Of a DNA stretch of 64,000 nt, positions 11,148 to 64,000 are shown in pieces. The DNA lies in the IMG/VR virus record IMGVR_UViG_3300034200_001454, positions 13,477 to 77,476 of that record, one strand, 5' to 3'. The notes under the pieces were generated by a model. That model was not told the origin of the DNA, did no database searches, and saw only the letters and a list, made by a program, of their open reading frames with translations. Numbering within the stretch: the first letter of the stretch is position 1; the number at the start of each line of letters is the position of its first letter. Source of the stretch: a virus. The translations under genes were made by a program, and so were the position numbers.

Positions 11148-14100
11148 ATGGCAGGTCAAAATGCTGACATGACCCTTAAGGTGGGTCTTGACCTTAATTT
11201 CTTCAGGCAGGAATTACAGAAAGCATCGTCTTCTCTTGCAGGGCAGCCGATTGATATTAATGTTCGTTTTAAGAGGAATCAGATTACTAACGAATTGCGA
11301 CTGCTCAGCAATTCGCTTAGCAGGAAAACATACGATGTTGAAGTAAAAAGCACAAGCCTCGAAGCCCTGCTAAAACAAGTAAATACTTTCAAGCAAACGC
11401 TCAAAAATCTCAAGGATGAAAAGATTGAGCTGAGCATTAATGCTTCGGCCAACATTGAAAAATTTAGCAAAGAAAAAATCCGCAAGATACGGGCGCAAAT
11501 TCGCAGCGATATTGTGTCTGGGGGAGCTGGAGAAATTCAGCTTCCGACAAAACTTGCTGCGCCAAGCACACCTGCATTTATTAAGGATGTAGCCAAAAAA
11601 GTAAAAGAGCAAATTAGCGCATCATCTGCAGAAGGCGGTATTCCCATCGCGACAAAGCTTGCATTACCCGGCATTACGGACACGCTAAAAGCTCTGCAAA
11701 AAAATCTAAACCAAAAAGATCCACTGCGAGTAAAAGTTAGTACAACGCCGTCAATCAAAAAGGCGGATGTAACCGCATTTAAAACTGCCGTCAGTGAAAA
11801 ATTCAAGAACATCACCGTAAAGGTTAGGGCTGAGCTTGACACCGCCACTACTGTCGCGCAAGTCGCTACTGCCGGACCTTCTCGTACTTTCTTGCAAGAG
11901 CTGAAAGACTTAGACAAGAGCGCTCTTCAAAATATTTATAAAGCCGCTGGCGAAGATGCGCTACTGGCGTTTGATGAAGGAATTATCAATAACAAAGCAA
12001 AAATGGCGCAAGCCTTAAGCAAGGCGGGGGAAGACGCAAGCGCCGGGTTTATTGCCGCACTTGAAAATAAAAAGAGCGCTTTGTTTAAGGCTGCAGGCGA
12101 ATACGGCGGCGCCTTGCTCAGCGGTTTGAAAAAAACTCTCAAAATACAATCTCCTTCGAGGGAGATGTTTGATATTGGCGATGATGCGGGCAAAGGTTTT
12201 GAACTCGGCCTGCTGAAAGCAATGGAGTTAGCGGAGAAGTCCGCTACCAATCAAATGCGGCGGATGTTAGACCGTCTCGCTCGAATGGCGCTCATGATGG
12301 GAGGCATGAGTGCGGCGGCAATTAACAAACAAGTTGCGCAATCAAGGGCCCTGCCCAGTGTTAATTTTCCAGCGACTGTACCACCTAGTCAGAGCATTCC
12401 TATTGGGCCATCTTCTACTGGCAGGACTCTTCCTGCTAGTCGTGCTGCCGCTGGATTGATTGGAGCTGTACAGGCTCCTGTAGGCTTACTACCAAGCGCA
12501 ACAAGACAGAGTGGACTTACTACTGGCCTTGAAGCCTTAATTCAATCACTCGTTTCCCAAAGTCGCGGGAGGGGGCCGGAAGGTCCTAGTTCCATTGTTT
12601 CCATGGAGACAGGATTTATTCCTGCGATGCGCGAACGCTTTGCGAAAGCTGCGGAACGCTATTTGTTTGGCGTTGAAACGCAAGTAATGGATTTGTTCGA
12701 CGCTGCGTTGAGACAAGTGGAATCTGCAGTTGATTTGCATATCGCAAAGATTCAAGGGCAGATTTCGCAAAGAATGAGAAACGCTTTTTCCGTAGTGGAT
12801 CTTGGCGTGCAGGAACGACCAATGCTTCCTGGTGCCGCTACAGGACAAGAGCCTCTAATGCTGCCTTCTGCAGGCGGAACAACACCGCAAGGACAGATGC
12901 GTTTCAACGCAGTTCGCACTGGCGAAGTTATTCCTTCTACACCATTGATGCTTCCGCCCGCTGGCGGCACCACGCCTCGCAGGGAAATGCGTTTCAATGC
13001 AGTGACATCTACTGGTGGACGAGGCGGCGGTTATGTCCCTCCCGGCGGTTTCCCGGAAGAGGGCATGCTTGGCATGCTTGGTGGGCGCCAAGGTCCAGCT
13101 ACGTTTATTGGTGCTGGCAGTCAAATGGTGAAACTTAAAGCTAATTTAGATGCCACTGTTCAATCAGTAGAGCAGTTCCGCAAGTCTCAGATACCGCTAG
13201 CAGGTACCATGCAAGAGCTTGCCGGAGAATTTGGAAACGCGGCTCAGCAAGTATTGCTTTATGGAACGGCTTACAAAGCGCTTGCATTCTTTGTGGGCCT
13301 TCCTGGTCAGGCTTTGAATGCAGCAAAAAGCTTACAAACATTTAACAACCAATTAAATGCAATCACTGGAAGTTCCGAGAATGCAGATCGGGCATTTGCT
13401 TTTGTCGATAATTTAGCTGCTCGTTTTAATGTGCCACTGGAAAGTGCTCGTCAGGGATTCGTAAAACTTTACGCTTCCATGGCTCCCGCTGGTTTTAGTA
13501 GCGGTGAAATTGAAAATCTATTCAGTGGAATTAGCAAAGCATCTGCAACTCTTGGACTTAGTTCCGATAAAGTTGATCGTGTTACTTATGCCTTCTCTCA
13601 AATGGCCAGTAAAGGTCAATTGATGAGCGAGGAAGTTAGCGGCCAATTGGGCGACGTAATCCCAGGCGCGTTGTCAATCATGGCAGAAGCTGCTCGCATG
13701 GATATTGCCACGTTCAAGAAAGCGATGGAAGACGGCGTATTCGTTGGAGAAACCTTCAAGCAGGTAATGAGCAATGTGCCTATTGTTTTGGAAAATCGTT
13801 TTGGGAAAGGAGCCGCTAACGCCGCGAAAACTCTTCAGGGTTCGATGAACGCTCTTGCTATTTCAACGCAAAAGTTTTATGAATCTTTTGAACCCATTGT
13901 TTCTATGGGCGCAGCTTCAATTTTCCCCATCATTGCTGTTGCCATTAATGATGCAACGCAAGCAGTACAGGCATTCACTGCTGCTATGCAGGGCAATACT
14001 ACTCCCGCTCAAATGCTAGAAGGCAATGCTGCTCAAATTTATGGCGTATTGCAGCAATTAAGGGAAATCTTTGTAGCCGTCGCAGGAGTTATTCAAGGTA

Positions 14101-24098: not shown

Positions 24099-27000
24099 AT
24101 GGCTGATCAAAGAATTACGGAGCTTGTAGAACTTCCCCAGGGAGGCGTATCGTCTAATGACGTACTGCCTATTGCAGACGTAAGTGCTAGTCAGACAAAG
24201 AAAGTGCAAGTGAAGAGCCTGATTCAAGCAGGTTTTAATCTTGCAGACGCTTCTACGCTGGATATTTCAAAAATTAACCAGGCAAGCGTAGCGAAACTTG
24301 GCGCAGCGGCCATTGGAACCAATGTTCTTACTTACGACAAGATTCAGCAGGTCAGTGCCACCGATCGCTTACTAGGAAGAAGCAGTGCGGGCGCGGGAAA
24401 TATAGAGGAAATCATTTGCACTTCATTTGCTCGCTCTCTGCTAGATGATGCAGATGCCACGACAGTACGTTCAACGCTTTCTCTTGGCGCTGTTGCTACT
24501 GGCGATACCATTAACACTTCCCTCATCGAAGATCTCGCCATCACAACTGGCAAAATCAATAACAATGCAGTTACCACTGCAAAGATTGCTGATGCCAATA
24601 TTACTACGGCAAAGATTGCAAGCGGAGCAATTGATAGTGCTCAATTAGCCGCTAGCGGAGTCGTTCAAGGCAAATTAGCCGCCAACTCTGTTATTACTGT
24701 CAACATTGTTGATAGCGGAATTACTCAAGCAAAACTCGCTGCCGATGCGGTGGGAACTGTCAATATTATTGGCAGTGGCATCACTCAATCTAAGCTTGCC
24801 GCCGATGCTGTTAATACGGTCAATATTATTGATTCGGCAGTAACCCTTGCCAAAATGGCAAGCGGAAGCATTGGCACTGCTCAGCTTATCGCTAGTGGCA
24901 TTACGCAAGAGAAGCTTGCTGCCGACGCAGTGGCGACTATTAACATCATTGCCTCTGGTATTACTCAGTCAAAGCTTGCTGCTAATGCAGTGGCTACTGT
25001 CAACGTCATAGATAGTGGCATCACTCAAGCCAAGTTGGCCAGTGGCTCTGTTGATACTGTCAATATTATCAATAGTGCGGTGACGCTAGCCAAGATGGCC
25101 AGCGGAAGCGTCGATACTGCTCAATTAGTCGCCAGTGGCATCACGCAAAGCAAATTAGCGGCCAATGCAGTGGACACTGTTAATGTCGTTGATTCTGGTA
25201 TTACGCAACAAAAACTTGCCGCCAATGCAGTGGCGACAATTAATATTGCTGATTCTGGTATTACGCAAGCAAAGCTTGGAACTAGTTCAGTAGACACTAT
25301 TAACATCATTGATTCTGCAGTAACGCTGGCAAAGATGGCCAGTGGTAGTGTTAATACTGCTCAGCTTATTGCTAGTGGTATCACCCAAGAAAAGCTGGCT
25401 GCCGATGCAGTGGCAACAATTAATATTGTTGATTCGGGAATTACACAGGCAAAACTTGCCGCTAATGCAGTCGCCACCATTAACATCATCAGCAGTGGTG
25501 TTACACAAGAAAAGCTTGCAAGTAATGCAGTGGCTACTGTCAACATTGTTGATAGTGGAGTTACGCAAAGCAAGCTTGCTGCTAATAGTATTGCAGCAAT
25601 CAACATTGTTGATTCTGGTATTACGCAAGCAAAACTTGGAAGTGGAGCAGTTGCTACTGTCAATATTATCGACTCCGCTGTAACGCTTGCAAAAATGGCG
25701 AGCAACAGTGTAGATACTGCTCAATTAGTCGCCAGTGGCATTACGCAGGAAAAGCTGGCTGCTAACGCAGTGGCAACCATTAACATTACGGATAGTGGTA
25801 TCACCCAAGAAAAGCTAGCTGCAAATGCAGTAAACACGGTCAATGTTGTTGATAGCGGGATTACGCAAGCAAAGCTTTCTTCTAATGCCGTTAACACCAT
25901 CAACGTGGTGGACAGTGGTATTACTCAGGCAAAGCTTGCTGCCAATGCAGTAGCTACAATCAATCTTGTCGATAGTGGAGTGACCACTGCAAAGATTGCT
26001 TCTGGCGCAATTACTATCGGCAAGCTTTCTCTTTCGTCGGGAGAATTAACGGGCTCCGTCATCACTGCTTCTTCCATTCCATCGGGAAGCTACGTGAGTG
26101 GATCAATTGTCACCACTGACATTGCTGACAATGCAGTTACATTTGCAAAAATTCAGCAAGTGGCATCTGGCGTACTGCTTGGACGTGCAAGTGCTGGTAG
26201 CGGCAACGTAGAAACTATCACGTTGACGGAAGCCGGCAGGGCATTGCTTGATGACGCGGACGCCACTGCTCAGCGCACAACGCTTGGCCTTGGCTCTATG
26301 GCCATCCAGGCCGCTTCTGGCGTGCTCATTACGGGCGGCACAGCAGTACTTAGCAGCGGCACGATTGCTTACGCGACAATCAACGGTGGTGTCATCAGTG
26401 GAATTACTGACCTTGCCATTGCTGATGGCGGCACGGGCGCTTCTACGGCCTCTGGCGCACGAACAAACCTTGGCCTTGCCGTTGGTACTGACGTGCAAGC
26501 ATATGATGCTGCACTTGCATCAATCGCAGGGCTGACGACGGCATCTGGCCAAATCATTTACACCACGGCTTCCGACACTTACGCCACCGCCACAATTACG
26601 GCTGCTGGTCGTGCCATTCTTGATGATGCAGATGCAAGTGCTCAGCGCACCACTCTTGGACTTGGCTCTTTATCTGTCAAAAATACAGTTGGCAGTGGAG
26701 ATTATGATTCTTCTTCCATTGTTACTGCCAACATTGCCGATTCTGCAATTACCACAGCAAAGATTGCTGACAGCGGCATTACGACTATCAAGATTGCTGA
26801 TGCAAATGTTACGCAGGCGAAGCTGGCTAGCGATTCAGTAAGCACTATAAAGATCGTCAATAGTGGCGTGACCACTGCAAAATTGGCTGATAACGCAGTT
26901 TCTTATGCAAAGATTCAAGAAACGACAACGAGTGATGTCATTCTTGGTCGCTCATCTGCAAGTGGTGGCACTGTAGAAGAAATTGCATGCACTTCGGCGG

Positions 27001-52767: not shown

Positions 52768-52813
52768 ACTGGGCATGCGGGCGAGAGCTTGCATGCCCTT
52801 TCTCTTTAAAGCA

Positions 52814-53143
52814 ATGACAGCAAGGTTTTATCATTGGGGAGAGAAGCTTTCAGCTTTCACTTCTGACAATCGCTTGGTGATGAGCTTTGGCTCTCCCATT
52901 GCCAGCGTGCCTATCACAGTGAAGGAGCTTCAAGATTTTGTTTGCACATTAGAGCAGGCAATTGACGATGAGCCAAATGTTAAGCAGCGCATTGCACTCG
53001 GTTCTATCAAGCACATTTTTCAAGCCTCTCTAAAGCAAGCACAAAAGGATCATGAACAGATTGTCGAAGAAGCTCCTACTGGCGCAGATCTGGAAGAATA
53101 TATGCTTTCTTACTCGCGTGCCATCAAAGAAGGAGCTTTCTGA
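52814..53143 (+). CDS. Hypothetical protein
   Basis: ATG after promoter and hairpin. Confidence 0.6.
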   Translation: MTARFYHWGEKLSAFTSDNRLVMSFGSPIASVPITVKELQDFVCTLEQAIDDEPNVKQRIALGSIKHIFQASLKQAQKDHEQIVEEAPTGADLEEYMLSYSRAIKEGAF

Positions 53144-57638: not shown

Positions 57639-57877
57639 TCCTCGTTGACTTCTTCTCTGAAGATTGTTGTAAAGGCACGGAACTAATTGAAGGTTGGTAT
57701 TTTTATGCTGATGACAATGAAAGCTTGGTAGGAGGACCATTTACAAGCGAAGAAGCCGCCCTAAAGGCGGCTTTTGATGGTCATGGTTGGTAGGGAAAAT
57801 AATTGCTAGCATGGCGAAACATCGCGAGACTGGCATCTCGTGACGTTTCTAACCACTACCAAAGAAGGAGTTTGGCC

Positions 57878-58537
57878 ATGGCTGAATACAAGCATAGCAG
57901 CGTGCCTACAGGGTTTAAGGAGATCCCTGGGTATGACGGACGCTATTTCATCAATGAGAAGGGCGAGGTGTGGAGCGTGTTGAAAAATCGCTTCATGAGC
58001 AAGCATCTTAACGCGAAGAAGATGTATTTAACTGTGCCATTAAGCCGTAAATGTGAGCGCATGCGTCCGCGATTGATTCACCATCTAATGGCAGTTACTT
58101 GGATGGAGAAATGCCCCGGAGAGTGGGGAGCAGCCCGTGGCAAATACCAAATCAATCACAAAGATGGAAATAAGCAGAATAATTGTCTTGAAAATCTTGA
58201 ATGGGTAAAGCACGAAGAGAATTTAAGGCACGCTTGGGATAATGGATTGCAAAGTGCTGGAGAAGATCGGCCAAATGCCCAATTCATCTCCGAACAGGTA
58301 AGGCAGATTCGCCTAAGGTTGATTGCTGGTGAAAAATGCAAAGCAATCTCTATTGAGCTTGGCGTAAGCGTTGAAAGCATAAAGAAAATTCAACAGTACA
58401 CTTCATGGAAGCGCCAAGACTGGGATTTAATTGAGCCGATGATGAAAATTTGCAAATCAAAATGGTTAAAGGTGACATTGCAGTGCGTGCGAGAGGGAGG
58501 CCACTTTTGGGATTATTCTCGCCCTCGTGTTCTTTGA
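57878..58537 (+). CDS. NUMOD4-HNH homing endonuclease
   Basis: FKEIPGYDGRYFINEKGEVWS; INHKDGNKQNNCLENLEWV; SD AAGGAG. Confidence 0.88.
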   Translation: MAEYKHSSVPTGFKEIPGYDGRYFINEKGEVWSVLKNRFMSKHLNAKKMYLTVPLSRKCERMRPRLIHHLMAVTWMEKCPGEWGAARGKYQINHKDGNKQNNCLENLEWVKHEENLRHAWDNGLQSAGEDRPNAQFISEQVRQIRLRLIAGEKCKAISIELGVSVESIKKIQQYTSWKRQDWDLIEPMMKICKSKWLKVTLQCVREGGHFWDYSRPRVL

Positions 58538-58597
58538 TTTGTAGCACTGGGGCGAGTATCGCCCCATTTATTTTGAAATCGGCTAAGTCTGTATCTA

Positions 58598-58681
58598 AGA
58601 CCCGGCGGCGAGCGTATCAGGCAAGGCCAAGAGTGTATAAGATCCGGCGACGAGTGTATCAGACCCGGCGACGAGCGTATC
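58598..58681. repeat. 4 x 21 bp tandem iteron-like repeats
   Basis: AGACCCGGCGGCGAGCGTATC / AGGCAAGGCCAAGAGTGTATA / AGATCCGGCGACGAGTGTATC / AGACCCGGCGACGAGCGTATC. Confidence 0.9.
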
Positions 58682-58752
58682 ACCTTTCTTTTATATAGTT
58701 TCATCTCATCATCACATCATAACGCTGCCGTTATATGCGCATAGCCGCATAG

Positions 58753-58768
58753 TAGTACAAACGTACTA
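58753..58768. promoter_or_regulatory. LexA-box-like palindrome
   Basis: TAGTAC-AAAC-GTACTA, one mismatch from cyanobacterial TAGTACA-N2-TGTACTA. Confidence 0.5.
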
Positions 58769-58815
58769 GCCTGAGGCGAGGGCGATTCCCCGGTTCTCCG
58801 ATGGGGAATAGGGAG

Positions 58816-58858
58816 AATATACCCTACCTGGCAAGCGTGAAATATACCCTACCTGGCA
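58816..58858. repeat. 2 x 18 bp direct repeat, 25 bp period
   Basis: AATATACCCTACCTGGCA at 58816 and 58841. Confidence 0.9.
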
Positions 58859-59054
58859 GCCGTAGACATAGCCTACTGGTGACGGCCTTAAAAGTAAGCC
58901 ACTGGTGGCGCGCTGATTCTTTCTGCCTACTGGCGCGATTCTGCCGAGCTTCAGTGAGACCAACTGCTGCGCGTGGCTGCCTACTCTCACCAGCGTGATT
59001 CTGCCGCGATCGCCTATGCCTACTGTTCCGCCGTATTTGTGCTGTCTGCCGCAT

Positions 59055-59150
59055 GGCCTTAGGTGAGCCTCACTGCGCAGCGCTAGTTGAGCCCTACTGT
59101 TTAGCGCTAGTTCTCTCTCACTGTTTAGCGCTAGTTGAGCCCTACTGTTC
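59055..59150. repeat. 3-4 x 24 bp tandem repeats
   Basis: AGCGCTAGTTGAGCCCTACTGTTT-like units at 59079, 59103, 59127; degenerate copy at 59055. Confidence 0.9.
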
Positions 59151-59617
59151 AGCCCTAAGTGTAGATGTTTCAATACGTAACGCCGCTGGCGGTTCTGGCG
59201 CTCCCAATGGTATGGGCGCCGATTGTTGCCGATTGTTGCAGCAGCGGATTGTTTCGCAGGTTTCGTGATACGCGCGGGTGCGCGATCGTCTCTCTGCTGC
59301 ACACTGCACGCAGTCTCTCCCTTTTGATAAGCCTGGCTTGTCATTCTGCTGCGGATCGGGCACTGATAAGCCTATCCGCTTATGTCCCGCCAAACGAGTG
59401 CTGACTAATCGCCCGTGCTTATCACAAGCGCTCTCCCCCTTTACGGCCGCTTTTGAGGTCTGTAGTGTTCCCTCAGAACCTAGAAAACTGAAAAGCAACG
59501 ACACCGAGCGCCACCAGGCGTTCGCGCGCGGGCTTTTGTGGCCGCCGTGATGGCGCGGGATCAAATCCCGCCGCGCGCTTTGCCGGCTTCTGCCGGCCTT
59601 TCCCTCTCTTCTCTTTA

Positions 59618-60313
59618 ATGGCTTCTCTTTCTCTTTCCCAGCTCCGTTCTTTCCCTTGGATTGTTTGCGATCGCGCAAGCCTCCGGCCTTGCGACCTTGC
59701 AGACGCCTTTCTTGGTGCTGCCGATACAATCACGGAGCTTCTTTCCCTGCCACGTCCTGACGGTCTGACGCCTGCCGGTTTGCGCTCTTCTTCTGTGGCT
59801 CTTCTGCAAAAGCTTGCAACGGACTCCGCTTCTTTCGTTGCTGACCCAGCTTCAGAAGAAGCGCTTTCAGCGCTGGAAGAGCTTTCCGCTTGGCTAGATT
59901 CTCGCAGCCCCGCGGGCTTCTCTTTCGGCGCTTCTGAAGGAGATGGCGCCTTGTTCGGCTTCTTCCTTTCTTCTGACTGGGAAGAAGCGCTGGAAGAACG
60001 CGGCCTTTCTTCTCTTCTTGAAAACCCTGAAGCTTGCGCTCTTCTTCTGCAAGAAGCGGAAGACATTGGCCTGTGTCCCGATACCTTCTGTGACGGCTTC
60101 CAGGGAGAAGCTGAAGGCTACTCCGAAGAAGAAGCTGGAAGAGACTACGCTCAATGTCTCGCGGAAGAGACAGGAGAATGCGACTTCTCCCGGCTTCCTT
60201 GGCCACAATGCTGTATTGATTGGGCAGAAGCTTGGCAGCTTCTTGAGTACGACGGTTTCACTCTTGCGCCTTCTCCCTGGTCTTGCCGCTGGTATGTTTT
60301 GCGCTCAGTCTGA
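59618..60313 (+). CDS. Acidic protein with C-terminal ArdA-like anti-restriction domain
   Basis: FCDGFQGEAEGYSEEEAGRDYAQCLAEETG...CIDWAEAWQLLEYDGF resembles ArdA C-terminus; N-terminal SPAGFSFGASEGDGALFGF domain. Confidence 0.65.
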   Translation: MASLSLSQLRSFPWIVCDRASLRPCDLADAFLGAADTITELLSLPRPDGLTPAGLRSSSVALLQKLATDSASFVADPASEEALSALEELSAWLDSRSPAGFSFGASEGDGALFGFFLSSDWEEALEERGLSSLLENPEACALLLQEAEDIGLCPDTFCDGFQGEAEGYSEEEAGRDYAQCLAEETGECDFSRLPWPQCCIDWAEAWQLLEYDGFTLAPSPWSCRWYVLRSV

Positions 60314-60368
60314 AGCTTTCTCGGCCGGCTTCTGCCGGCCTTTCTTTCCTTCTCTTTCCTTTCTCACA

Positions 60369-61157
60369 ATGTCCATTGTTCCGGCCTTTCTTTCCACTGT
60401 TCACGATCGCATCGAACGCCTTTCCGCGCTTTCTGGCTCTTTCTACACTGTCAGTCCTGACCGATACATTGGCGGCTGTAATACGTGGGAAAGCTATTCT
60501 CCCTTGGAAGAAGAGGAGCTTTCCTTCTCTTCCTTGGAAGCTACTGCTGGCAGACATTGCGGCTTCTCCAAGCTTTCTCCCTTTGAAACTTTCCAGCGCT
60601 TCTGTGAGAAGAAGCTCCACAACGTGACCGCGCTTGTCTTCTGTCCTGACTACTGCCAAGGAAGCGACTACAGCGGAAGCTTGGTAGAACTTTCTAACTG
60701 TGACGTACTGGCAGAAGACCACTACGGGAAAGGCGTGTGGCGCCTTTATGGCGGCCATGGCTCTTTTGGTCTTGCTTTTGACATACGCTTTCTCACAGAA
60801 GAAGCCCTGGAAGCCCTGGAAAGCTTGCAAGACTACCCGCTAGCTTCAGAAGACAGGCTTTCTGAGCTTGAACTTGAGAAAGACGGAGAAGCTTGGGAAA
60901 GCTGGGCTTCTTCTGACTTTACGAAAGAGCTTCTGAAGCTTCTTTCTTCTTTCTATCAAGAAGCCTCAGAAGACAAGCTAGAAACCCTGGAAGACAAGCT
61001 AGAAAGCTTGGAAGACGAGAAACTTTACGGGCTCTTCCAAGAAGCCTGCGAGATTGGCAACCACTACTGGGAAACCGGACACCAAGACCGCTGGGTTGAT
61101 TGCGAACGCGTGGCAGCTTCTGTCAGCTTCTCTTCTCTCCTGGAGGCTCTGGCGTGA
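60369..61157 (+). CDS. Highly acidic hypothetical protein (DNA-mimic candidate)
   Basis: Start ATG 60369 after repeated leader; SDYSGSLVELSN...DYPLASEDRLSELE...AWESW. Confidence 0.7.
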   Translation: MSIVPAFLSTVHDRIERLSALSGSFYTVSPDRYIGGCNTWESYSPLEEEELSFSSLEATAGRHCGFSKLSPFETFQRFCEKKLHNVTALVFCPDYCQGSDYSGSLVELSNCDVLAEDHYGKGVWRLYGGHGSFGLAFDIRFLTEEALEALESLQDYPLASEDRLSELELEKDGEAWESWASSDFTKELLKLLSSFYQEASEDKLETLEDKLESLEDEKLYGLFQEACEIGNHYWETGHQDRWVDCERVAASVSFSSLLEALA

Positions 61158-61336
61158 TCCGTCTTGCACTTTCCAAGAAAGAAGCTTTCTTCCTTCTTCT
61201 CACCGTAGAAAGCTTCCTGCCAGAAGCTGAGCCAGAAGAACTGGAAGCCCTAGAAAGCTGCCTAGCCAAGCTTCAGGAACTTGCCCCGGCTTCTCCCTTT
61301 AAGACCGCCACAGAAGCCCGTTACAGCCGTTCCTGA
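61154..61336 (+). CDS. 60-aa hypothetical protein
   Basis: GTGA overlap, SD GGAGG at 61142. Confidence 0.6.
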   Translation: MIRLALSKKEAFFLLLTVESFLPEAEPEELEALESCLAKLQELAPASPFKTATEARYSRS

Positions 61337-61360
61337 CGCCCATAGGATGACAACCCCATT

Positions 61361-61390
61361 AGCCCTGCCAGTACTGGTAGGGCTTTTGTT
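61361..61390 (+). terminator. Intrinsic terminator
   Basis: AGCCCTGCCA-GTAC-TGGTAGGGCT-TTTGTT. Confidence 0.8.
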
Positions 61391-61576
61391 TCGCTTGAAA
61401 AAGGGACTATCAGCCACATTTGCACTGCAACTGTCAGTATTAAGTTATATTTCAATTCGCCGTGTTAAGCTTTGCAACAATGCTTGACAGGGCGCAGTAG
61501 CAGGGGGGTGAAAAAAAACTGGGGCTGGGGTATACGCCTCGAAAAGTGGCGCAATTTTTCGTCCAGAAAATCGCTT

Positions 61577-62236
61577 TTATTTACCAAGGAATGGAACAGA
61601 GTCTATGAATTGCTGTTTATCGGGAACTATCACACGTTTTTGCTGAGAGGGGATGAGGAGGGGAATACATTGATGAGCGAGGGATTGATCCAGGGAATTG
61701 AGATGCTGAAGGAGAGGAGCTTTAGCAAGGAACCATTCACCTTCTCGGCGAAGTTCTGCGAATTGCCGATGAAGATGCAATTCCTGCTTGGGGCCATCCA
61801 CCTGATTGAGTGCTAGTAAAAAAATTCTAGGAATAGCCGTAAGGAAAGTTTCAAATCGGCTATGAAGGGAAGATGAATAGCCAATTTTAACAAGAGAAGA
61901 ATCAACAGGATTGGCAATGTAATAAATAATATGCCGACCAATGACACCATGAATATCGCGTGCATATTTTTGCTTCCGTTGGCGTTCTTTTTCTTGAGAC
62001 ACTGTATTGCCGCTGCGAGATGGGCGAGAATAATTCAAGGCCGCTTGGCGTCGACATGCTTTACAGGCAGACTTGAGTCCGTCAGACATTTTTGAATCTT
62101 TTCCAAAAGCAGAGGAAGAAAGAAGAACCTTGCATTGAGAGCAGATCTTAAGTTGTTGAGTGAGAAGATCAGAATGCGCGAGCATGTTTTGCCGGTAAAG
62201 GCCACGATTGTAGCCAAAGCTTTTGACGAGAGACAT
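61577..62236 (-). CDS. Zn-finger plus GIY-YIG (T5orf172-like) endonuclease
   Basis: CSQC..CKAC; IYYI..LVKIGYS...ELHLHRQFAELRREGEWF. Confidence 0.8.
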   Translation of the reverse strand: MSLVKSFGYNRGLYRQNMLAHSDLLTQQLKICSQCKVLLSSSAFGKDSKMSDGLKSACKACRRQAALNYSRPSRSGNTVSQEKERQRKQKYARDIHGVIGRHIIYYIANPVDSSLVKIGYSSSLHSRFETFLTAIPRIFLLALNQVDGPKQELHLHRQFAELRREGEWFLAKAPLLQHLNSLDQSLAHQCIPLLIPSQQKRVIVPDKQQFIDSVPFLGK

Positions 62237-62885
62237 TCAATGTCAAGGAAAAGTGGTAGTACCATAAAGCTAGTAGTTGTACGCTGAAAGCAAGCCGAAG
62301 GCGCCGCTTGAAGCGTTTCCAGTAATAGACAAGACAAATGGAGACGGCCCTAAGCCGTCGTAATGACGCACAAAATCGCGCACTTTCCTTTCCATCGTTC
62401 TCAGCAAAAAGGCGGCCTAAAGCCGTCGTTCAAGCTTTTAAAGATGGTATTGTCCTTAATTTGCCTGTTCCCAGAAGCTACGCATAGCTTGGCCGTGTCA
62501 TCACATAAGACTGACACAGCTTTTTTGAAATTCGCCCCTCGATGGAGAGGCTCCGTCCCTTTGGGGGACTCCGCTACTAGGACATCGGGGCTGGTCTAGC
62601 CTTCTTGTCCGTCACTTCGCGCTTGGGGCGCTCCGTTGGAGGAGAGATGTCCGGGAGGGACTAAGCGGGAGGAGCCGGGCTTGGCGTGTGCTCCGCTTAC
62701 GGTAATCGTATCTCAGCCTGTGGGTCAAATGTGGCTTTTTCCGTATCATGGTGATACAAAAGCTAAAAAATCTTCACAATTTCTCAAGGATTCATAAGGG
62801 CATGGTCGTTTGCTGAAGAATGTATTAAATAATGCATGCACGATTTGTGAGAAGAACTAGCGTAGTAAAACTACGAGCCATTACA

Positions 62886-63077
62886 ATGTTCGGTTTGCCG
62901 GAACGCCAGCCATTTAACTATGGTCCCTATAAGCTTTGGCCATGTTTTAGTAGGCCAGAATTTCAATGGTTTGCAGCGATAGACGGCAAGCCTTGCTATT
63001 TCAAGAGCTTGAACGAAGCGAAGCTGTTTATCAAGGACAAGCTCTCCGTCGAAGACGCCGAGAATTTGTGCGATTGA
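62886..63077 (+). CDS. Hypothetical protein
   Basis: ORF from ATG 62886. Confidence 0.5.
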   Translation: MFGLPERQPFNYGPYKLWPCFSRPEFQWFAAIDGKPCYFKSLNEAKLFIKDKLSVEDAENLCD

Positions 63078-63147
63078 TTTGCTAAAATATTGTGAAGCAG
63101 CGACGTTGGCGCGTCCTGCTTCTGGCCACCTACTACAACTAGATGAC

Positions 63148-63726
63148 ATGGCAAAGCTAGCACATCGCATTCTTCCTCCATTGGAACTATTGGAGGATCT
63201 GTTGACTTTAGATCCAAAAAGTCCAAGTTGGTTGTCTTGGCGCAACCCGCGCAGCAAGAAACTTAAGCCTGGCGATAATGCGGGGTGGCAAGACACGAGC
63301 GGCAGTCGCAATACTGGTTATTTCCAAATAGGACTAAGGCTAAATGGCAAAGATCATCTTTTCCTCGGGCATCGCATTGTTTATTTTCTGTATTACAAAA
63401 TAGATCCTGGCTCATTACAAGTGGATCACATTGACGGCAATAAATTTAATCACAATCCATTGAACTTGCGCCTTGTCTCTGATTCAGGAAACAGGGCAAA
63501 TGCGCCAAAAAGGAACCAACTTACTTCTAGTAAGTTCAAGGGCGTTTGCAGGAATAAGCGTTCAGAGACAAGGCCATGGATGGCGTATATTGATTGGCAA
63601 AAGAAGCGCAAATATTTAGGCACGTTTACCAGTGAAGAGCAGGCTGCAATGGCCTACAACAAGGCTGCAATTGAACTGCATGGATCATACGCTTTTCTTA
63701 ACGATATCGCCATTGTTTCGGAGTAA
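63148..63726 (+). CDS. HNH-AP2 homing endonuclease
   Basis: GHRIVY..VDHIDGNKFNHNPLNLR; SSKFKGV..WMAYI..YLGTF..AAMAYNKAA. Confidence 0.9.
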   Translation: MAKLAHRILPPLELLEDLLTLDPKSPSWLSWRNPRSKKLKPGDNAGWQDTSGSRNTGYFQIGLRLNGKDHLFLGHRIVYFLYYKIDPGSLQVDHIDGNKFNHNPLNLRLVSDSGNRANAPKRNQLTSSKFKGVCRNKRSETRPWMAYIDWQKKRKYLGTFTSEEQAAMAYNKAAIELHGSYAFLNDIAIVSE

Positions 63727-63783
63727 TTTGCGCTAGCCTTCCTTCTGTTGATCGCGCCCCGCCCAGCGGGGCTTTGTTGTCTA

Positions 63784-64000
63784 ATGGGACTCAAGAAGAA
63801 AGCAAAGTGCGAACCAATTGCTCGTACAGGGCGAGTGCAGGATTGGCTTGATAGCCCCGAGGGGCGCCTCGCTGTGAGCTGCACCACATTTGTAGTGGAA
63901 GATTCAATGGAAGGGCCGGATGGAATTGAGGCGTCGTGGCGTTTTGTTTCTCATGCTCTCCGCAATGCCGCTGGCGCTGCTGTTAATTTGTCAAAACTTC
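63784..64000 (+). CDS. nrdJ: Class II ribonucleotide reductase, cyanophage type (5' fragment)
   Basis: IARTGRVQDWLDSPEGRLAVSCTTFVVEDSMEGPDGIEASWRFVSHALR. Confidence 0.8.
   Translation, partial: MGLKKKAKCEPIARTGRVQDWLDSPEGRLAVSCTTFVVEDSMEGPDGIEASWRFVSHALRNAAGAAVNLSKL

Follow-up and report, generated by a model that had tools for sequence, protein, structure and literature searches.

Our analysis of a 64,000-nucleotide (nt) stretch of virus DNA, positions 13,477 to 77,476 of IMG/VR record IMGVR_UViG_3300034200_001454 and hereafter called the window, shows that an operon of three plus-strand genes across 59618-61336 is written in a synonymous code that works at the scale of the whole operon. 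A first-pass annotation had noticed that this unit is poor in the dinucleotide ApT and low in complexity. The anomaly is real, far beyond chance and deeper than that annotation saw: the three-gene unit is a compositional island whose bias reaches synonymous sites, and the rule behind it is broader than loss of ApT, because the DNA is made of purine runs and pyrimidine runs. The source record is 77,476 bp long with a CheckV completeness of 100%, the window being its final 64 kb, and the same DNA was found again in about 20 lake-water metagenome runs.

An island of purine runs and pyrimidine runs

The first-pass annotation had counted about 31 ApT steps by hand, and exactly 31 are present in 59581-61336 (1756 nt; odds 0.33). 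Over the 64 kb, windows of the same size have a median count of 118 and reach at most 153; the lowest of them all overlap the island. TpA and GpT are also low (odds 0.38 each), whereas CT (1.63), GA (1.56), AA (1.61) and AG (1.46) are raised. The words that the annotation had named are there in number: CTTCT/AGAAG occur 37/23 times, GCTTC/GAAGC 23/22 times, AGCT 34 times and AAGCTT 13 times, the last compared to 2.1 copies expected from the rest of the genome. Its remarks on the proteins were likewise correct, as Asp is encoded by 25 GAC and 8 GAT codons, and Ile and Met account for 10 and 2 of 553 residues, compared to 6.1% and 2.3% genome-wide. The vocabulary, which it had described as collapsed, is indeed reduced in distinct 5-mers (586, against a median of 751) and 6-mers (948, against a median of 1299), but 232 of the 256 possible 4-mers are still present.

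The extent found by a maximal-segment scan (Table 1) nearly equals the 59581-61336 proposed earlier. Within it, steps that stay in the same class (purine to purine or pyrimidine to pyrimidine) make up 0.64 of all steps, as against 0.53 for the flanks. Pyrimidines account for 56% of the sense strand. All nine runs of at least 15 nt are pyrimidine on the sense strand, which gives a density of 5.2/kb against 0.1/kb in the rest of the genome, a roughly 50-fold difference. The run bias ends at 61303, about 60 nt 5' of the terminator. The second-lowest k-mer diversity was found at about 24400-26400, in the gene for a protein with many tandem 'ITxAKLAADAV.TVNII.SG'-like repeats that resembles a tail fibre; this is ordinary repeat DNA, without purine or pyrimidine runs.

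Three layers behind the bias

Three layers can be separated. Layer 1 is protein composition, with Leu, Glu, Ser and Ala abundant and Ile, Met and Asn scarce. The contribution of each layer can be read from the density of ApT, which is 70.6 per kb for background genes, 45.6 for the island proteins written in genome codon usage, 27 with the island's own codons and 18.6 as observed. Codon-shuffled controls place the bias beyond amino-acid composition. Recoding with genome usage yields 76 ApT (z -7.6), and shuffling the island's own synonymous codons, in which swaps are made inside each gene so that both protein and codon usage are kept, yields 46 compared to the real 31 (z -4.7). The diversity of 5-mers behaves in the same way (z -11 against genome-usage recoding and z -8.9 against own-codon shuffles).

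Layer 2 is codon choice, in which NAC is preferred over NAT, TTC over TTT, and pyrimidine-ending codons are favoured. The island and the capsid gene set have correlated codon shifts (rho 0.33, p 0.012): AAC, TTC, CAC, TAC and ACC are up in both, and TTA and AGT are down. In its NAC fraction the island is close to the capsid genes, and the share of pyrimidines at fourfold-degenerate sites is 0.70 in the island and 0.74-0.79 in the capsid genes. Layer 2 is ordinary high-expression codon usage, measured here against phage capsid genes rather than as a true codon adaptation index (CAI). We considered the phage's own tRNA supply as a cause and rejected it; only tRNA-Met(CAT) and tRNA-Leu(TAA) are encoded, and TTA is used 0 times in the island.

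Layer 3 becomes visible in a junction test, which asks whether the third base of a codon matches the first base of the next codon in purine/pyrimidine class. The junction z is 4.9 for ORF2 (in frame) and 2.6 for ORF1, where ORF denotes open reading frame. The genome's other 60 genes have a mean of -0.25 (standard deviation 1.01, maximum 2.8); for the capsid genes the range is -0.8 to 0.8. Layer 3 is an island-specific, context-dependent synonymous choice that prolongs runs across codon borders. It removes A/T-only stretches and CpG and confines the text to a few mutually complementary words. The gene at 52775-53143 has the only other raised junction score in the genome (z 2.8, same-class fraction 0.56).

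Conservation and dialects in related phages

Locus scans, run from sub-alignments A2 and A3 because the broad alignment A1 was too diverse, recovered 58 related loci. Sharp-edged islands of 1.4-2.6 kb are present in 17 distinct relatives, with a same-class fraction of 0.61-0.70 compared to 0.48-0.56 in their flanks. Seventeen of the 18 ORF2 homologues have a junction z of 3.1-7.6, whereas 36 flank ORFs average -0.12, and among ORF1 homologues the junction z reaches 4.8. In a sister clade the first gene of the cassette is ORF-A, with a junction z of 2.7-5.1 in 8 of 12 loci. ORF-A was considered as an ORF1 homologue and rejected (hhalign probability 0.5%). Layer 3 belongs to the cassette, not to one protein family. 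ORF3 homologues were found in the loci L002, L003, L009, L011 and L013, and in the gene order of the sister clade the ORF3 homologue lies between the first gene and the ORF2 homologue.

The first-pass annotation had named homologues without the bias as a finding that would count against its reading. Such homologues do occur, but only among distant GC-rich phages (GC about 0.6), which keep an ORF2-like plus ORF1-like pair with mean z of 0.3 and 0.7. The gene pair is older than the compositional feature. In several of these distant phages (L040:1180-2600, L053:1913-3091, L041, L042 and L034), the ORF2-like and ORF1-like genes are adjacent but in reversed order.

The clades write the bias in different words. 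The window's clade uses GAA/AAG with TTC/CTT, and the sister clade uses GAG/AGA with CTC/TCT. The GAG fraction of Glu tracks the CTC fraction of Leu (rho 0.80) while other C-ending codons go the opposite way, so the match is not an effect of GC content at third codon positions. The cassette is 91% identical to that of L011 (flanks 85-87%) and about 66% identical to those of L002 and L013 (flanks 70-74%). Since the cassette diverges in step with its flanks, the bias is actively maintained in each lineage and not passively inherited. At about 66% identity, the clades differ at synonymous sites to the point of saturation, and still each of them retains the bias. Third positions have diverged less in the island (62/556 codons) than in neighbour genes (50/288). 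Transitions and transversions between the window and L011 number 65:25 in the island and 171:116 in the flanks, a comparison that is confounded by twofold-degenerate codons and is not used as evidence. Because layer 3 is conserved at synonymous sites, selection acts on the nucleic acid itself.

In a search for relatives among cultured phages, neither blastn nor tblastn matched the island to any of 50,697 phage records, a negative to which the low-complexity filter of BLAST may contribute. A scan of the genome contig collection found no relative, and full-text literature searches returned no earlier description of such a pattern.

Layout of the operon

The locus is a conserved freshwater tailed-phage operon in the order hairpin, CU-rich leader, ORF1, hairpin, CU-rich leader, ORF2, ORF3, terminator (Table 1). 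The first copy of the 21-nt element is predicted to be paired (unpaired probability 0.25). The ORF1 leader is predicted to be open, with an unpaired probability of 0.93 compared to 0.39 operon-wide, and the predicted value for the ORF2 leader is 0.60. Both pyrimidine leaders are without a Shine-Dalgarno sequence. ORF3 is translationally coupled to ORF2. A scan of 58400-61700 for sigma-70 promoters found no sites.

Table 1. Coordinates of the operon, its elements and the features 5' of it, in window numbering
Feature	Position	Strand	Description
Purine-run/pyrimidine-run island	59587-61303	+	Maximal-segment scan
21-nt element GCCGGCTTCTGCCGGCCTTTC, copy 1	59582-59602	+	6-bp GC stem, TTCT loop; adjoins ORF1 leader; island start
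ORF1 leader	59597-59617	+	Pure pyrimidine, with a 20-nt pyrimidine run; runs up to the ORF1 ATG
ORF1	59618-60313	+	231 aa, isoelectric point (pI) 4.05, net charge -29; distant ArdA-like candidate, putative DNA mimic
21-nt element GCCGGCTTCTGCCGGCCTTTC, copy 2	60324-60344	+	Exact repeat in the ORF1-ORF2 spacer; also scored terminator-like
ORF2 leader	60339-60365	+	27-nt pure pyrimidine tract; longest run of the island
ORF2	60369-61157	+	262 aa, pI 4.39, net charge -30; phage family, 57 homologues
ORF3	61154-61336	+	60 aa, pI 4.83, net charge -3; GTG start overlaps the ORF2 stop as GTGA
Intrinsic-terminator-like hairpin plus T tract	61361-61392 (hairpin 61361-61384)	+	Closes the operon 3' of ORF3
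Iteron-like tandem array, 21 bp x 4	58598-58682		In the gene-poor stretch of about 1.1 kb 5' of the operon
Second tandem array, 24 bp x 4.1	59060-59157		One 24-nt unit missing in a variant contig of run X12
Conserved, strongly folding segment	59290-59581	+	Minimum free energy -122.2 kcal/mol, z -4.0 against dinucleotide shuffles

The ORF2 frame is open for 426 nt 5' of its ATG (59943-61157), across the spacer hairpin and into the final third of ORF1, and gene callers give N-terminally extended ORF2 forms of 293-343 aa in relatives (P0002-P0004, P0008). This open frame is probably a by-product of the few stop codons in run-rich DNA, where stops are rare in other frames because pyrimidine-to-purine steps are scarce; a frameshift fusion of ORF1 and ORF2 is a conceivable alternative. 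Overlapping antisense or alternative-frame genes were considered and rejected. Long ORFs do exist in other frames, but the codon-aligned antisense frame has 11 stops (CTA 6, TCA 5).

ORF1 as a candidate ArdA relative

The first-pass annotation called the encoded proteins acidic and ArdA-like. All three are acidic (Table 1), and ORF1 contains 41 Asp plus Glu compared to 12 Lys plus Arg. The likeness to ArdA is credible for ORF1, as a distant relative by structural rank, PHROG match and predicted homodimer, but the tests run gave no sign of likeness to ArdA or Ocr for ORF2 and ORF3.

Against the ORF1 model, which has a predicted local distance difference test score (pLDDT) of 91.8, ArdA chain 2w82_A ranks first of 48,161 chains (VIA-wide), at a weak Z of 4.5 and a root-mean-square deviation (rmsd) of 5.1 Å over 119 residues, with model residues 11-231. 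Foldseek pairs ORF1 with 2w82_B at E 1.0, probability 0.47 and rmsd 4.5 over 118 columns, the only low-rmsd row. By sequence, ORF1 gave no match to Pfam ArdA (PF07275) at E ≤ 0.1, and a six-frame search of the genome that encodes it gave none at E ≤ 10 either. The best relative, P0067, is 67% identical to ORF1 and reaches 25.6 bits compared to the 27-bit ArdA cut-off (E 2.2e-5, profile positions 84-153 of 155). Among 35 members of the ORF1 family, 4 match Pfam ArdA at E ≤ 1 and 15 match phrog_2059, 'anti-restriction protein'. Profile searches of the PDB with the ORF1 and ORF2 families returned nothing significant.

A homodimer of ORF1 is predicted with a score of 0.48, compared to 0.00 for the best of three controls. 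Of 30 proteins known from solved structures as pairs of one chain, 20 attain this mark, as does 1 of the 23 known as single chains. Between runs, at least 95% of contacts agree, the partner pLDDT is at least 90, and the predicted interface is symmetric and formed by residues 178-208 in the C-terminal domain; resemblance to solved ArdA dimers may account for part of this result. Dimerisation via the C-terminal domain is a feature of ArdA as well. From sequence profiles and the model, it is plausible, although unproven, that ORF1 is a distant ArdA relative and, like ArdA, a dimeric DNA mimic. We take ORF1, with moderate probability, to work like ArdA, though it is not an established member of that family. 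Ocr is absent among the structural matches listed for ORF1 and ORF2, an absence that does not exclude the family.

The other cassette proteins

The ORF2 model (pLDDT 92.2) joins an alpha/beta N-terminal domain to a helical C-terminal one. It has no significant match in the PDB (best Z 5.9), only uncharacterised phage proteins as matches in BFVD and no usable match in the ESM Atlas. Pfam searches with ORF1, ORF2 and ORF3 gave nothing beyond two sub-threshold chance matches, and family and fold searches assign neither ORF3 nor ORF-A. An anti-defence role for ORF2, ORF3 and ORF-A would be one of guilt by association only.

Palindromes and restriction motifs

The first-pass annotation had suggested that the narrow vocabulary may be stealth against host restriction or other motif-reading defences. 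Palindromes do not bear this out, since they are not fewer in the island (90 against 86 for 4-mers, 27 against 23 for 6-mers); pooled over 17 homologues, the counts are 628 against 670 and 213 against 215. Generic palindrome avoidance was considered, since no palindrome fits inside a pure run, and rejected, as the totals are unchanged and AGCT (z +9), CTAG (z +6.4) and AAGCTT are enriched. Island-specific avoidance of restriction motifs was also rejected, because TCGA, TTCGAA, GGCC, CCGG and GAGCTC are avoided genome-wide and are not rarer in the island. There are 6 CCGG in 1.66 kb of island coding sequence, in addition to the GCCGGC hairpins, compared to 1.3/kb elsewhere, and CCGG, GGCC and CGATCG are all at or above genome density.

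The non-island genes carry a pattern of their own when compared with synonymous shuffles: TTCGAA occurs 0 times against 19, TCGA 94 against 185, CCGG 73 against 139, GGCC 171 against 247, GAGCTC 0 against 11 and GTNAC 132 against 160. AAGCTT is over-represented in these genes (65 against 37). The genome-wide avoidance of palindromes looks like the restriction-pressure fingerprint of a host. TTCGAA-type enzymes occur in Nostocales cyanobacteria.

The region 5' of the operon and the contig ends

About 1.1 kb 5' of the operon contains no convincing genes. Iteron-like arrays of 21-39 bp lie 5' of the cassette in every relative examined (L013:4414-4611, L003:2364-2521, L009:1870-2083), and in L001 a repeated stretch is visible 5' of the island. 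The tandem arrays may be an origin of replication, an operator or a packaging signal. The folding segment at 59290-59581 shares sequence blocks with L011, L002 and L013. It holds three GATAAGC/GCTTATC inverted-repeat units near 59334-59428 and, just 5' of the operon, a tRNA T-arm-like hairpin, GCGGGAT-CAA-ATCCCGC, at 59555-59571. A tRNA, a transfer-messenger RNA or a known RNA family was considered here and rejected; ARAGORN found none, and Rfam gave only chance-level rows. The segment may be a structured 5' leader RNA, a processing signal or an operator cluster.

The two ends of the contig overlap. Genome positions 1-416 match window positions 62658-63073 with 94.7% identity, and genome positions 498-721 match window positions 63777-64000 with 96.4%. 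Since the first 721 nt repeat the last 1.3 kb, apart from an HNH-AP2 gene in one copy, the record is a circularly permuted assembly. Contigs from three runs span 57.1-62.8 kb unbroken.

The genes around the operon are homing endonucleases (HNH/NUMOD4, T5orf172 and HNH-AP2) and small phage ORFs. The HNH-AP2 gene (63079-63726) is in the end copy only, read depth drops about 2-4 fold there, and a contig of run X12 skips 62974-63742. It is a presence/absence homing endonuclease polymorphism, beside a ribonucleotide-reductase-like gene. Minor-variant contigs from runs X3 and X11 skip about 921 nt (57795-58717) that hold the HNH/NUMOD4 gene at 57803-58537, a second such polymorphism, which borders the region 5' of the island.

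The message as a proposed target of selection

We consider the mRNA the most likely target of selection in layer 3, although we hold this view tentatively, with somewhat less than even confidence. A transcript written in this way would offer few single-stranded A/U-rich sites to RNase E-type nucleases and would pair more with itself. The stem-loop 5' of each large cistron would be followed by an open pyrimidine leader, and such leaders would allow initiation without a Shine-Dalgarno sequence. The outcome would be a stable early message that is translated fast and abundantly, from an operon that would act in anti-defence. RNase E targets single-stranded A/U-rich RNA, is induced in cyanophage infection and is blocked by duplex formation (PMC3113571).

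Several observations speak for this proposal. The leaders, the spacer and each of the three cistrons carry the bias, which ends short of the terminator. Runs of at least 12 nt on the sense strand, pooled over 17 islands, comprise 157 of pyrimidine and 28 of purine. A/T-only 4-mers are present at 9.0/kb, compared to a median of 66/kb in other genes (z -4.3 against own-codon shuffles). Folding energy lies below that of synonymous shuffles, with a mean z of -3.4 in 13 homologues compared to -1.1 in 8 flank ORFs; the window genes have -3.0 and -2.4. Identical GC hairpins, predicted to be paired, stand 5' of both large cistrons.

Other points weigh against the mRNA as the target. Strand symmetry of the junction preferences is nearly perfect: for 17 homologues taken together, the observed/expected ratios of junction dinucleotides are 1.73/1.58 for AG/CT, 1.45/1.33 for GA/TC and 0.45/0.43 for AC/GT, along with 0.37 for AT, 0.58 for CG and 1.20 for GC, and z values of k-mers and their reverse complements correlate with r 0.81. 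Strand symmetry is expected from a property of duplex DNA and from self-complementary RNA alike, so the symmetry test does not separate the two. G-U pairing makes a strict match of GAG and CTC less needed for RNA than for DNA. The signal from folding is of moderate size: a z of -3.3 occurs in some ordinary genes, and with genome codon usage as the reference the window genes have a z of only -1.1 and -2.2. The structured segment at 59290-59581 is without the run bias, and if transcription starts there the transcript is only partly covered. The dialect correlation rests on only two or three independent clades, and the assignment to ArdA has sequence scores below threshold and a weak structural Z behind it.

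Alternative explanations

The first-pass annotation suggested that the locus may be a stealth-coded entry cassette, that is, first-entering DNA with a collapsed k-mer vocabulary that holds no targets for motif readers until the mimics are made. The reduced counts of distinct 5-mers and 6-mers fit this idea, as do slightly fewer distinct palindromes per gene (11.3 against 12.5 for 4-mers, z -3.7; 7.1 against 8.4 for 6-mers, z -2.8), the strong avoidance of CG-centred palindromes in homologues (TCGA 21 against 95) and the symmetric avoidance of GT/AC, AT and CG. There is also a precedent, in that the sensitivity of Autographiviridae phages is decided by where a Type I motif lies in their early-injected region (PMC12455610). 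However, we find stealth quite improbable as an explanation. The total of palindromes is unreduced, with AGCT, CTAG and AAGCTT enriched; the five avoided motifs are avoided throughout the genome; and we estimate that the chance of finding a random 6-mer falls only from about 0.53 to about 0.41. A cut elsewhere would still kill the phage unless its DNA entered stepwise, the contig ends are assembly artefacts, and plasmid leading regions are likewise not consistently depleted of motifs (PMC13478746). Optimisation for translation only, with extreme codon and codon-pair choice for fast synthesis of anti-defence proteins, we regard as improbable. The island has its NAC, TTC and pyrimidine-ending preferences in common with capsid genes, and anti-restriction genes of plasmids have the highest CAI (PMC13478746), but the capsid genes show no junction effect, the untranslated leaders and spacer are biased too, sister clades use opposite Glu and Leu codons, and the two phage tRNAs do not serve the codons of the island.

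A property of the double-stranded DNA is a less improbable target, though still an unlikely one. Purine-pyrimidine tracts could form a non-B structure or a protein-binding array, which could be tied to the adjacent iteron region in replication, packaging or DNA entry, or could block translocating enzymes; GAA/TTC- and GA/TC-type tracts are classic formers of triplex or H-DNA. Strand-symmetric preferences at synonymous sites favour this explanation, and the match within each dialect (GAG with CTC; GAA/AAG with TTC/CTT) obeys Watson-Crick complementarity. Nine pure tracts of 15-27 nt are crowded into 1.7 kb, and the iteron-like arrays lie just 5' in every relative examined. What a duplex property does not need is the 5.6:1 excess of pyrimidine among the long tracts of the sense strand. 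The edges of the island match the translated operon and not the repeat region, the bias is even over 1.7 kb of coding sequence rather than focused in a few long mirror repeats, and such tracts are known obstacles to transcription, an unexpected trait in genes whose codon usage is of the high-expression kind. The pattern might also have no function, as a foreign dinucleotide signature brought by horizontal transfer or as the product of local mutation by slippage or template switching in low-complexity DNA, in either case riding along with acidic proteins of low complexity. Genome signatures are indeed strand-symmetric and sharp-edged, short internal tandem duplications exist (a 21-nt unit at 60969-61016), and homing endonucleases flank the cassette. 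This nevertheless seems very improbable to us: the cassette diverges in step with its flanks in L011, L002 and L013, every clade keeps the bias in its own dialect despite saturated synonymous sites, third-position divergence is lower than in neighbour genes, and the proteins are conserved and, in models with pLDDT of about 92, well folded.

Meaning of a proposed operon-scale synonymous constraint

A bolder proposal takes in the message and the duplex alike. In this clade of freshwater phages, an anti-defence operon may be protected at the level of the nucleic acid by a run-forming, self-complementary and lineage-specific synonymous vocabulary (GAA/CTT or GAG/CTC), with the result that host nucleases or sensors handle the message or the duplex differently. 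We advance this proposal with slightly less confidence than the mRNA as target. If true, it would define a new class of operon-scale synonymous constraint, separate from codon adaptation and from motif avoidance, and would provide a sequence-only marker for finding anti-defence genes that are as yet unknown.

Until now, two forms of compositional adaptation have been described for anti-defence genes: codon adaptation and the loss of restriction motifs. The locus adds a third, statistically strong layer, which is confined to one operon, kept in at least 17 diverged phages and imposed on unrelated cassette genes. With the mRNA as target, phages would be tuning how the messages that first counter host defence behave physically; with the DNA as target, a coding region would serve as a structural element as well. 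The codon-junction statistic costs little to compute and could be used to scan phage genomes and flag candidates like ORF2, ORF3 and ORF-A. A concrete negative result is that the restriction-stealth reading, attractive as it is, fails its own tests at this locus.

Comparison with known systems

ORF1 resembles ArdA (PF07275; 2W82, Tn916 Orf18) in being small and very acidic, in its predicted dimer through the C-terminal domain and in having ArdA as its top structural match. It differs in length (231 aa compared to about 165 aa), in its N-terminal half and in giving no match to the ArdA hidden Markov model. Its gene also belongs to a phage and not to the leading region of a conjugative element, and its ArdA-like activity is putative.

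For layer 3, the proposed stability of the message recalls the protection from RNase E in cyanophage infection (Stazic et al., 2011, PMC3113571), where fewer single-stranded A/U-rich sites and more pairing likewise mean stability at a time of high RNase E activity. In that case long antisense RNAs act in trans, as was shown biochemically, whereas here the pairing would act in cis within coding sequence. With H-DNA formed by (GA)n.(TC)n and (GAA)n.(TTC)n, the island has in common that its two dialects use these repeat classes and that it holds many pure tracts of 15-27 nt. Its tracts are imperfect, protein-coding and short next to the classic examples, and any such structure is putative.

The motif-free early-injected regions of T7-like Murciavirus facing Type I restriction-modification (PMC12455610) offer a parallel, in that the composition of a region with anti-defence genes matters before those genes act. 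There, a single recognition motif is absent from a mapped leading end, whereas here no avoided motif is specific to the island and motifs avoided by the genome are present in it. The first-step-transfer region of T5 is a further motif-free early-injected case.

Finally, codon adaptation is especially high in the anti-restriction genes of plasmid leading regions, where palindromes are not consistently depleted (Shaw et al., 2026, PMC13478746). Layer 2 of the island fits this pattern, and both systems combine anti-defence genes, raised high-expression codon usage and no consistent loss of short palindromes. The difference is that the plasmid genes show codon adaptation only, whereas the phage operon adds a layer of runs that extends into non-coding leaders, is written in clade-specific dialects and is absent from other highly expressed phage genes.

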